Below are positions 2,811-5,202 of a stretch of 64,000 nucleotides of DNA, in pieces. Location: IMG/VR virus record IMGVR_UViG_3300009494_000372; one strand, given 5' to 3'. The notes under the pieces are model-generated. The model searched no databases. It saw nothing but the letters and a program-made list of their open reading frames with translations, and was not told the DNA's origin. The first letter of the stretch is position 1, and every line of letters begins with the position of its first letter. The position numbers were made by a program, and so were the translations under genes. This DNA comes from a virus.

Positions 2811-3717
2811 ACCGCCACCGATCGCTTTTAGCGAGATCGAACAGAGGCTCATGGGGATCGTTGAGTCACGGGTCTACACAAAAGGACGCTACCTCGGCAT
2901 ACTTGAGGACGAGCTGCAGGAGTATCTCGGTGTGGACCATGTGATCGCCACCAGCTCCGGCACGTCTGCGCTGTGGATCGCGATGCGGGTGATGCGTAAG
3001 AATAGACTCGCTGACGAATACATCGCAATTCCTGCCTTCAACTGGCGGTCTGACCGAATTGCGGCGGAATCCGCTGGCTATGAGATAGTAGGTGTTGACA
3101 TCGATCCGGACACGTGGCTGCCTATCCCGCGTCGTGGTTTCGTGGACGCATGTCTTGCGCTCGACACGTTCGGCAGCATCGATCGCCAGGACTATCGTGG
3201 ACAGTTCATCGTTGATGCCACCCACTCGCTCGGGGTGAAGGGTGTGGGCTCGCGAGGCGTAGCTGAGTGCTTCTCGATGGCAGCCACGAAGCCTGTGAGT
3301 GCCGGTGGTGAAGGTGGTTTCATCACCACGAACGACCGGGATTTCGCGCAGCGATGTGCCGAGCTGCGTGATATGTGCGCCCGGATCCCGGAGGTAAGCT
3401 GTGTCATTGCTCTCGAATACCTGCACCGGCTTGACGAACTGCTATCAGAAAAGCGCAGGATCGCAGCATACTACCGGAAGCACCTCCCGTACCAGTTCCA
3501 GGAGATTCAGCATGACAGCACTCACAGCAAGATCTGTTTCCTGTGCGACAACAGCGAAGAGGTGATCCGGAGAGCTGCTAAAAACGGCGTAGAATGCCGG
3601 AAGTACTACAAGCCACTGTATGATATGCCGTACTCAAGGTCGGTGTATGATCGCATCGTGTGCCTGCCAAGCTGGTCAAAAGTAGACGTCTCACATGTTG
3701 TAGCCGCGATTGTATAG
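2788..3717 (+). CDS. DegT/DnrJ/EryC1/StrS PLP-dependent sugar aminotransferase
   Basis: SSGTSAL, IVDATHSLG, FSMAATKPVSAGGEGGFITT motifs. Confidence 0.85.
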   Translation: MIRIPYFRPPPIAFSEIEQRLMGIVESRVYTKGRYLGILEDELQEYLGVDHVIATSSGTSALWIAMRVMRKNRLADEYIAIPAFNWRSDRIAAESAGYEIVGVDIDPDTWLPIPRRGFVDACLALDTFGSIDRQDYRGQFIVDATHSLGVKGVGSRGVAECFSMAATKPVSAGGEGGFITTNDRDFAQRCAELRDMCARIPEVSCVIALEYLHRLDELLSEKRRIAAYYRKHLPYQFQEIQHDSTHSKICFLCDNSEEVIRRAAKNGVECRKYYKPLYDMPYSRSVYDRIVCLPSWSKVDVSHVVAAIV

Positions 3718-3720
3718 CCA

Positions 3721-5047
3721 TGCCCGCGATGTGTCGATATGCATCTAAAAAAGACACAATCACCGCAGGCGAAAGGTTTTTAACCTTATGGGTTAAAAAG
3801 ATTATTGTCGATATGCAGGAAATAGTCAGAGCGTATAAGGCAGAGTTAAAGCTCAACAACAAGCGGATTACCGATTGCACAAAACACGTCAACGCTGCGC
3901 GGTTCGCGTGGAATTGGGGTCTGGCACGCCGGATCGAGGCATACAGAGAGCGTGGCGAGACGTTGAATGCCATAAGCTTGCACAGGGAGCTTAACAGTCT
4001 CAAGAAGACCGAGCTTTCGTGGTTGTACGGCGTCAGTAAATGCGCACCACAAGAAGCGTTGAGAGACCTTGATAAAGCATACACTAACTTTTTCGAGCAT
4101 AGAGCAAGATATCCCCGGTTTAAAACGAAAAGGGGGAAACGAAGTAAACAATCGTTCCGTTTAACCGGTGCTATCAAAGTATTCACAGATTCTATCCAGT
4201 TGCCGCGTATTGGTAGATTGCGACTGAAAGAGCGTGATTATCTGCCATCCGGCAAACACATCCTATCGGCAACCGTATCCGAGACGGCAGGACACTGGTT
4301 TGTCTCGGTGCAGGTGAAAGAGGCTGTTGAAATCCCCTCTAACAACGGAGAGATCGCCGGAGTCGATTTAGGGATCAAGACGATGGCTTACGTTTCAGAT
4401 GGTACAACCTTTGAGAGTCCGAAAGCGTTGAAACGGCATGAGCGGAAACTGAAACGGGCTCAACGAAAGGTTTCAAGGAGAGTGAAAGGCAGTAACAACC
4501 GGATAAAAGCAGTAAAAGAATTGCAGAGAATCCATAAACGGATAAGAGATATTAGAACAGATGCTATCCACAAAACAACGAGCCATCTGGCAAAAACCAA
4601 GTCAGTAATCGTGCTCGAAGACCTTAACGTAAAAGGGATGATGAAAAATCATTGTCTCGCAAAAGCGATAGCAGATGTCGGGATGTACGAATTTCGCAGG
4701 CAGATGGAATACAAGTGTCCGCTGTATGGGTCAAAGTTGGTCTTTGCTGATCGATTCTTCCCATCAAGTAAGATGTGCTCGCGGTGCGGACACATCAAAA
4801 CAGACCTCACGCTGGCGCAGAGGACGTTTATCTGCGATGAATGTGGATTCGTGATAGACAGAGATAATAATGCGAGTCTTAACTTAAGACAGGTGGCTGT
4901 CAGTTTGACAGACACCTTAAAAACGCCTGTTAGAGCGGAAGGCTCTGGCTTGCTCAATACTGGAGTAAGTGAAACCATCCTCAATGAAACAGGAAGTAAA
5001 CACTATTTGGGTATAGGCGTCCTGAATGGGTAAGTTTTATAGAACGG
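3721..5047 (+). mobile_element. Non-autonomous tnpB-only IS element, copy 1 (IS607-like ends); left end approximate
   Basis: Closely similar to 26263-27589; both copies diverge from their flanks right after ...AACGG; TGTCGATATGCA occurs twice near the left end; no tnpA. Confidence 0.75.
3813..5033 (+). CDS. tnpB: TnpB RNA-guided endonuclease, RuvC intact
   Basis: GVDLG, VLEDL, CSRCG..CDECG zinc ribbon and DRDNNAS. Confidence 0.92.
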   Translation: MQEIVRAYKAELKLNNKRITDCTKHVNAARFAWNWGLARRIEAYRERGETLNAISLHRELNSLKKTELSWLYGVSKCAPQEALRDLDKAYTNFFEHRARYPRFKTKRGKRSKQSFRLTGAIKVFTDSIQLPRIGRLRLKERDYLPSGKHILSATVSETAGHWFVSVQVKEAVEIPSNNGEIAGVDLGIKTMAYVSDGTTFESPKALKRHERKLKRAQRKVSRRVKGSNNRIKAVKELQRIHKRIRDIRTDAIHKTTSHLAKTKSVIVLEDLNVKGMMKNHCLAKAIADVGMYEFRRQMEYKCPLYGSKLVFADRFFPSSKMCSRCGHIKTDLTLAQRTFICDECGFVIDRDNNASLNLRQVAVSLTDTLKTPVRAEGSGLLNTGVSETILNETGSKHYLGIGVLNG

Positions 5048-5202
5048 CGGGTTCATCACCACGAACGACCGTGATTTTGCGCAGCGATGTGCCGTACTCA
5101 ATGTCAGTGTATGATCGGATTGTTTGTCTCCCGAGTTGGCAAAATGTGGATGTGAAACAAGTGGTTGCCGCGGTGACCTGTGGTAGCACGAAAGGTTTAT
5201 GA
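5046..5202 (+). pseudogene. Internally deleted 3' remnant of a second DegT aminotransferase allele
   Basis: 5046-5094 resembles 3313-3361 and 5091-5175 resembles about 3627-3710; the two pieces join at an ATGTGCCG/ATATGCCG microhomology. Confidence 0.75.

Follow-up and report, generated by a model that had tools for sequence, protein, structure and literature searches.

The characterised TnpB proteins of IS607 elements use the TAMs TGGG, AGGAG, and GAGGG. In the TnpB of ISFba1, cutting is lost or severely weakened by a single mismatch in positions 1-13 (PMC11061315). TnpB was further reported to drive the spread of insertion sequences between plasmids without TnpA (10.1101/2025.02.20.638934). 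A review of homing lists TnpB under transposon homing, which concerns the presence or absence of the element, and lists intronless homing for protein-guided endonucleases (PMC13565253).

Here we describe a tnpB gene that lies between an intact degT aminotransferase gene and a short degT-like stump in a 64,000-nt stretch of DNA (IMG/VR virus record IMGVR_UViG_3300009494_000372; the whole stretch is hereafter called the window). Like the IS607 TnpB/omega-RNA systems CboTnpB (10.1101/2023.11.20.567912) and ISFba1 (PMC11061315, PDB 8iaz), the window TnpB combines a RuvC triad and a zinc finger with a predicted flank-derived guide. It shares with the characterised IS607 TnpBs a right end in GG, a scaffold overlapping the end of the gene, and a G-rich 5' flank, and its 79%-identical relative in an autonomous IS607 element (contig L269) adjoins an IS607 serine transposase. 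Unlike a mobile IS607, the window copy has neither tnpA nor a left end, and there is no empty donor joint for the guide to cut. Unlike the characterised IS607 TnpBs, it has the target gene intact 1.7 kb upstream in the form of another allele, and its predicted scaffold falls outside the Rfam families.

The host element and its relatives

The window encodes a tail-like target of a diversity-generating retroelement, an MCM-like helicase, a clamp loader, an integrase, and tRNAs. As no capsid gene was identified among its genes, we use the term virus-like mobile element. Among syntenic contigs, the nearest (L052, the same as L137) was binned with a Methanosarcinales MAG, and the window is a virus-like element of sediment archaea. 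A search of IMG/VR returned no close relatives of the window degT or tnpB, and a close relative of tnpB was absent from the searched genomes of the order (284) and the phylum (401) of the nearest MAG.

Three more TnpB/Cas12f-like ORFs are present in the window (60635-61876, - strand; 63080-64000, + strand; 22596-23942, + strand), one of which adjoins a CRISPR array at about 24250-25480. The window also contains a long tandem array with an IS110/Nop-like gene that resembles TIGR-Tas (44885-47573), the diversity-generating retroelement with its tail-like target, reverse transcriptase, and a VR/TR pair at 76% (11936-14818), and a tRNA with anticodon GAA and a long variable arm (5328-5414, - strand).

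The tnpB unit and its predicted omega-RNA

The locus is composed of the following features, listed together with a second tnpB unit of the window:

2788-3717, + strand: intact DegT/DnrJ/EryC1/StrS aminotransferase gene, allele A, 309 aa (Pfam PF01041, E 8e-38)
3310-3314, + strand: candidate TAM GAAGG preceding the self site (from sequence and the clade insertion flanks AAGGG and GCAGG)
3315-3334, + strand: self site, the allele A counterpart of the guide target, with synonymous mismatches at guide positions 1 and 4
3721-3815, + strand: archaeal promoter-like module before tnpB (putative promoter, from BRE/TATA-like sequence and position)
3813-5033, + strand: tnpB, 406 aa, IS607 lineage, without tnpA (RuvC D185/E269/D351 and two CxxC intact)
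4870-5047, + strand: predicted omega-RNA scaffold, overlapping the tnpB end and stopping at the IS right end AACGG (from conservation boundary and fold)
5048-5067, + strand: predicted guide, from degT allele B (length by analogy with characterised IS607 TnpBs)
5048-5094, + strand: block 1 of the allele B stump, codons of the GGFITTND motif (four synonymous and 0 replacement differences to allele A)
5086-5202, + strand: block 2 of the allele B stump, native C-terminal codons and stop (76% to 3622-3708)
26263-27589, + strand: second promoter-tnpB-right end unit, 91.6% identical, with another guide

The window TnpB passes the NF040570 model (321.7 bits vs a cut-off of 100) and scores 276.5 bits with NF038280 (IS607_TnpB), under the cut-off of 350. 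The TnpA of L269 passes NF033518 (187 bits, cut-off 110), and a truncated tnpA is present in L217/L218. By these sequence affinities, the window tnpB lineage is tied to an IS607 serine transposase. We compared ten distinct insertion sites of the clade defined by TnpB identity of at least 79%. All three catalytic RuvC residues are kept across the clade copies, and tnpB dN/dS within the clade amounts to 0.08-0.18 (0.084 between the two window copies). This purifying selection may, in part, predate the present sites.

The IS right end was placed at 5047, in agreement with the initial annotation, because conservation across 13 aligned tnpB ends halts exactly at AACGG; the flanks beyond all differ. 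The suggestion that the guide is drawn from the right flank is also supported. The 178 nt before the right end fold better than shuffled sequences (z -2.67), covariation in this predicted scaffold is weak (double changes in 3 of 40 pairs), and no Rfam family matched it. The target of the second-copy guide was not found in the window, the relatives' loci examined, or IMG/VR, and exact-pattern scans of IMG/VR with the IS right end and this guide gave chance-level matches only. The flank of the second copy resembles the final codons of a gene (Cys/His-rich, 24 codons).

Two alleles of degT on the two sides of tnpB

Allele A keeps the PLP lysine motif ATKP and is the final gene of a nucleotide-sugar operon that is also found in L052, L053, L135, and L136; none of these four syntenic operons has a tnpB behind degT. 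The predicted guide (5048-5067) and the self site in allele A (3315-3334) are identical at 18 of 20 positions, a match expected about 0.0002 times by chance in 64 kb, and the similarity continues to 45 of 49 nt. The differences at positions 1 (C/T) and 4 (G/T) are both third positions of Gly codons, with GAAGG in front, in letters and coordinates as first reported. Within this DegT group, no segment is better conserved than the target codons (84% vs 60-78%). A hybrid breakpoint near the cut site was sought in the intact degT against relatives of 69-78% identity and none was resolved: at this distance, identity to the relatives shows no step at the target, and the last ~90 nt alone are unusually divergent.

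The right flank had been taken for the other half of an interrupted degT gene. Sequence of degT does stand at the right end, but not as a plain right half: block 1 starts at the target, runs for 47 nt (92% to the intact degT), and jumps to the last codons over a 269-bp microhomology deletion between 9-bp imperfect repeats (3353-3361 and 3622-3630 in allele A coordinates). Compared to allele A, the stump overall has pS 0.55, pN 0.085, and dN/dS 0.09, and block 2 has pS 0.67 and pN 0.13, with 13 of 22 same-residue codons differing. We derive the stump from a second allele that diverged as a working gene, because a decaying tandem duplicate would lack such a pS/pN pattern. Judged by its codons, the stump is thus the 3' remnant of a separate, once functional degT allele (allele B). 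Separate origins of blocks 1 and 2 (92% vs 76%) were considered and are unneeded, since block 1 is more conserved in all relatives (Fisher p 0.05).

The stump reading ends in VTCGSTKGL and a stop (5200-5202), like the intact P0005 (VTCVSTKGL) and P0002 (VTCAN), and the sequence beyond the stump on the right shows synteny with the TnpB-free L052. The locus therefore has its native 3' end in the stump, and the end of allele A is the newcomer. The duplicated 3' end flanks tnpB on both sides, and its downstream copy is the native one. The P0005 protein has identical target residues together with the B-like end.

The missing left end and the promoter-like module

The tnpB unit begins 3 nt past the stop codon of the intact degT. 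The 5' half of allele B, an IS left end, and tnpA are found nowhere in the window. The left end was mapped from L269, an autonomous clade member with an IS607 transposase and TnpB, in which removal of the element rejoins an in-frame gene start (MKG/FTIYRK) with the 5' flank AAGGG. L221 shares this left end and also has a promoter-module stack and tnpB, which makes it a complete non-autonomous element, with the flank GCAGG; the window tnpB copies retain just the final 97 nt of such a stack. The module at 3721-3815 was rejected as the IS left end, since unrelated genes also have it in front of them, and since in L221 and L269 the true left end lies farther upstream.

The 97-bp module has a repeated GTC(A/G)ATATG motif and a sharp 5' boundary, and it occurs at 3721-3815, 26263-26357, and 47616-47692 (- strand) of the window and in L250 and L251. 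Its cargo includes the two tnpBs, a Tas-like gene (46608-47573), a helicase, and another TnpB type. The presence of this module before unrelated genes in the window and its relatives makes it a candidate crossover site. A sigma-70 promoter scan, a method unsuited to archaeal promoters, gave chance-level matches.

Several junctions of related copies were also observed. In L269 (2850-2900), the IS607 right end gives an in-frame ATG to the interrupted histidine-kinase gene (MKG/FTIYRK becoming MER/FTIYRK), which the insertion may thus leave translatable. The tnpB right flank in L252 (5236-5370) is followed by an inverted copy of its own upstream promoter stack, and the tnpB of L224 (3990-4045) is without its first codons and fused to another gene's start and promoter.

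Candidate TAM and the two guide mismatches

A G-rich TAM compatible with GAAGG, as had been proposed, agrees with the clade insertion flanks AAGGG and GCAGG. The flanks before target genes in the clade are GAAGG or GAGGG (degT alleles), GCAGG, and CGTGG. A purine-GG motif would suit every clade flank except CGTGG, and GAAGG is a plausible TAM. If the TAM is GGG, the GAA Glu codon would make a third synonymous shield. A 55%-identical sister IS607 clade (L005, L008, L012, L037, and L270-L284) inserts mostly behind GGG-N-N-(C/G)-G, and its left junctions often are without GG immediately adjacent. A TAM requiring G at -5, taken from this sister clade, was rejected for the window clade by the AAGGG flank of L269.

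The synonymous differences in block 1 lie at guide-relative positions 1, 4, 25, and 31, two of them outside the guide. Given four synonymous changes in 16 codons, the location of both guide mismatches within the first four positions is no more than slightly unusual (p about 0.05), and allele divergence by itself gives a 76-98% chance of one or more mismatches in positions 1-13. Among TnpB-free alleles, T and C both occur at position 1 and G and T at position 4, and L055 has the T/T combination of the window. The five TnpB-free alleles with DNA each mismatch the guide at least once in positions 1-13. A fully matching B-type allele was found neither among these five nor in IMG/VR, and a pattern scan of IMG/VR for the B-type degT allele had zero matches.

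The initial annotation had offered two explanations for the mismatches. Silent escape by two selected new mutations is not supported, both positions being polymorphic among TnpB-free alleles. Acquisition of a resistant allele, in the form of a pre-existing one, is supported. The sequences compared agree with the capture of an allele that was already in circulation, on which any filtering for resistance was mild at most. By analogy with ISFba1, protection of allele A by two seed mismatches is likely. The self allele differs from non-self alleles at the target site in the window; this is not so at the second of two tnpB copies in L223, described below.

Recurrence at other sites of the clade

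An intact target gene adjoins tnpB at three of the ten clade sites, and the other seven have no neighbouring target. Most other clade sites look intergenic or are at gene ends. No adjoining intact target was seen at the more distant tnpB copies with a located right end, and no sister genome with the same filled degT site was found among the relatives.

Copy a of L223 has the order of the window: an intact gene, a promoter stack without left end, tnpB, and a 75%-identical 3' duplicate. Its self site, behind GCAGG, is mismatched at positions 9, 10, 11, 14, and 18. The 3' part of its intact allele also occurs in L226, with the next gene directly after and without a downstream tnpB. The L226 contig starts one base before the copy a target site (L226:1-20), the 5' context being beyond the contig, and this start may mark an assembly break at the insertion junction.

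At copy b of L223, the stump jumps via short repeats to the end of the preceding gene, and the intact target gene lies downstream. For the guide of this copy (L223:7842-8140), a site 266 nt downstream matches perfectly (20/20); it lies behind CGTGG in this intact gene, which encodes 1421 aa. Either T at -3 makes no TAM, or these TnpBs tolerate an adjoining perfect target; copy b is thus a natural test of the TAM. The guide is retained in both deleted stumps.

Proposed history and function of the locus

We consider the following history quite probable. A non-autonomous IS607 element with tnpB would have inserted into degT allele B, at the GG within its conserved Glu-Gly-Gly motif, through a serine transposase acting in trans, and allele B would thereby have been written into the guide. 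Recombination with a related element, probably by a crossover through the repeated promoter module, would have replaced the 5' half of allele B and the IS left end by the full-length, pre-existing allele A. The unused stump of allele B would then have lost 269 bp. The window tnpB copy cannot excise, because it has no tnpA and no left end.

With a probability of roughly 50%, this rescued insertion is now a transposase-free, RNA-guided homing or marker-exclusion cassette against related elements. TnpB, presumably expressed from its own promoter, would cut B-type degT in co-resident related elements, and the guide would spare allele A through the two seed mismatches and possibly also through the GAA Glu codon in the TAM. 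A cut rival would be destroyed or repaired from the window genome, with the B-type stump and the downstream DNA as the right arm. Since allele A has diverged, and since the stump and the DNA beyond it resemble B, such repair could transfer tnpB yet leave the gene intact; site-only conversion or simple loss of the rival would be alternative outcomes. The tnpB gene would in this way spread without a transposase and with the target gene unbroken, as RNA-guided intronless homing with a rescuing 3' end.

In favour of such a cassette we count the kept catalytic triad, the dN/dS of 0.08-0.18, the layout of L223 copy a, the intact target genes at three of ten clade sites, and the guides kept in deleted stumps. 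The origin of the stump as a separate functional allele and native 3' end, the absent left end, the high conservation of the target codons, the mismatch sensitivity of ISFba1 TnpB, and the TnpA-independent spread between plasmids also speak for it. Against it we count the perfect self target in the intact gene at L223 copy b, a rescue without guide mismatches; active cutting could be squared with it only by the post hoc argument that T at -3 is barred from the TAM. The 269-bp deletion, which shortens the right homology arm, also counts against it, as do the lack of a fully matching B-type allele among those searched and of a sister with a filled site, and the fact that mismatches are expected from divergence. 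A stronger version, in which a guide against a conserved gene, a cleavage-immune allele before tnpB, and a stump serving as both guide and homology arm allow costless spread among competing elements, can be put forward only tentatively. In this version, the clade would repeatedly have become natural home-and-rescue cassettes in virus-like elements of methane-cycling archaea.

Alternative explanations

The same history may have left a passive relic of rescue, the chief alternative, to which we give appreciable weight. TnpB would then be silent, its TAM unmet, or a cleavable allele never met, and the mismatches would be incidental allele differences; the layout would be seen because insertions in useful genes persist only when recombination restores the gene. 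Such a relic is consistent with the perfect self-match tolerated at L223 copy b, a stump decaying by a 269-bp deletion, mismatch positions that are polymorphic in TnpB-free alleles, the absence of a perfectly matching target allele from the five TnpB-free alleles and IMG/VR, and the seven of ten clade sites without a neighbouring target. It is harder to reconcile with the ORF, catalytic triad, scaffold, and own promoter that are intact in all copies, with strong purifying selection among copies without tnpA, and with the mismatched self alleles at both sites with a purine-GG flank. If there is no cutting, the locus shows, instructively but without being out of the ordinary, how a gene was repaired once an IS had inserted into it.

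An assembly chimera, in which an allele-A strain was joined to an IS-bearing allele-B strain across the repeated promoter or tnpB, is improbable. The same layout is present in L223, an element from another study, and for both TnpBs of L223 a separate 17.8-kb contig encodes near-identical proteins of the same cluster. Although the window has more than one copy of the promoter module and of tnpB and the element is on record as a single contig, its two tnpB copies differ by 8%, and the flanks on both sides are syntenic with L052.

Silent escape arising de novo, with a duplicated degT gaining two synonymous seed mutations under self-cleavage pressure, is already largely refuted, and we regard it as very improbable. 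The clustering of both mismatches in the first four guide positions (p about 0.05) would agree with it, but the divergence is of genome-of-origin scale (pS 0.55, dN/dS 0.09) and reaches outside the guide, both states at positions 1 and 4 are present in TnpB-free alleles, and the 3' part of the L223 copy a intact allele was seen without a downstream tnpB in L226.

Finally, TldR-like regulation, in which TnpB would bind the mismatched self site, leave it uncut, and tune degT expression, could be read from the targeting of a neighbouring gene and the perfect self-match of L223 copy b but is highly unlikely, as the RuvC triad is intact, whereas TldRs are nuclease-dead (PMC13622181), the target lies mid-gene and not at a promoter, seed mismatches should hinder binding, and the guide is different at every site.

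Comparison with known systems

Counterparts of the proposed cassette are found among protein-guided nucleases. In intronless homing by T4 SegF and SegB (PMC13565253), as at the window locus, a free-standing nuclease adjoins a conserved gene, self and rival are told apart by substitutions in that gene, and the action would take place between co-resident related elements. Unlike in SegF and SegB, the specificity would lie in an RNA guide written by transposition and not in the protein, and the nuclease is followed by the target gene's displaced 3' end, which has been retained. In this last respect the window resembles the mobile ORFs of fungal mitochondria (Allomyces macrogynus atp6; Glomus atp6, atp9, cox2, and nad3; PMC3630166), where a gene with a replacement 3' end is followed by an endonuclease and the displaced native 3' end, which differs mostly at synonymous sites. 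The fungal nucleases are LAGLIDADG or GIY-YIG proteins in mitochondria, whereas here TnpB resides in an archaeal mobile element and the stump supplies the predicted guide.

Among TnpB systems, the plasmid drive (10.1101/2025.02.20.638934) gives a TnpB-bearing replicon a TnpA-independent edge over a target-bearing rival, as the proposed cassette would; unlike the window layout, it leaves the site disrupted. The window TnpB differs from TldR in that its RuvC is without inactivation. Our literature search found no described TnpB case of the intronless homing type and no RNA-guided, transposase-free nuclease between a rescuing allele and a guide-donating stump, which does not prove their absence. 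The parts are all known singly, and their combination, seen more than once, is apparently new.

Should the cassette prove to cut allele B but not allele A, it would be a natural RNA-guided example of self/rival intronless homing. It would then explain the persistence of tnpB in viruses after transposase loss and offer a small system, open to direct testing, in which susceptible and resistant alleles both occur naturally. A recoded, cleavage-immune rescue of the target gene beside a nuclease is likewise a feature of the engineered HomeR drive (PMC7968924), which is synthetic, Cas9-based, and eukaryotic. By its layout, the window locus recalls a drive of natural origin in which the rival would be cut and the gene kept.
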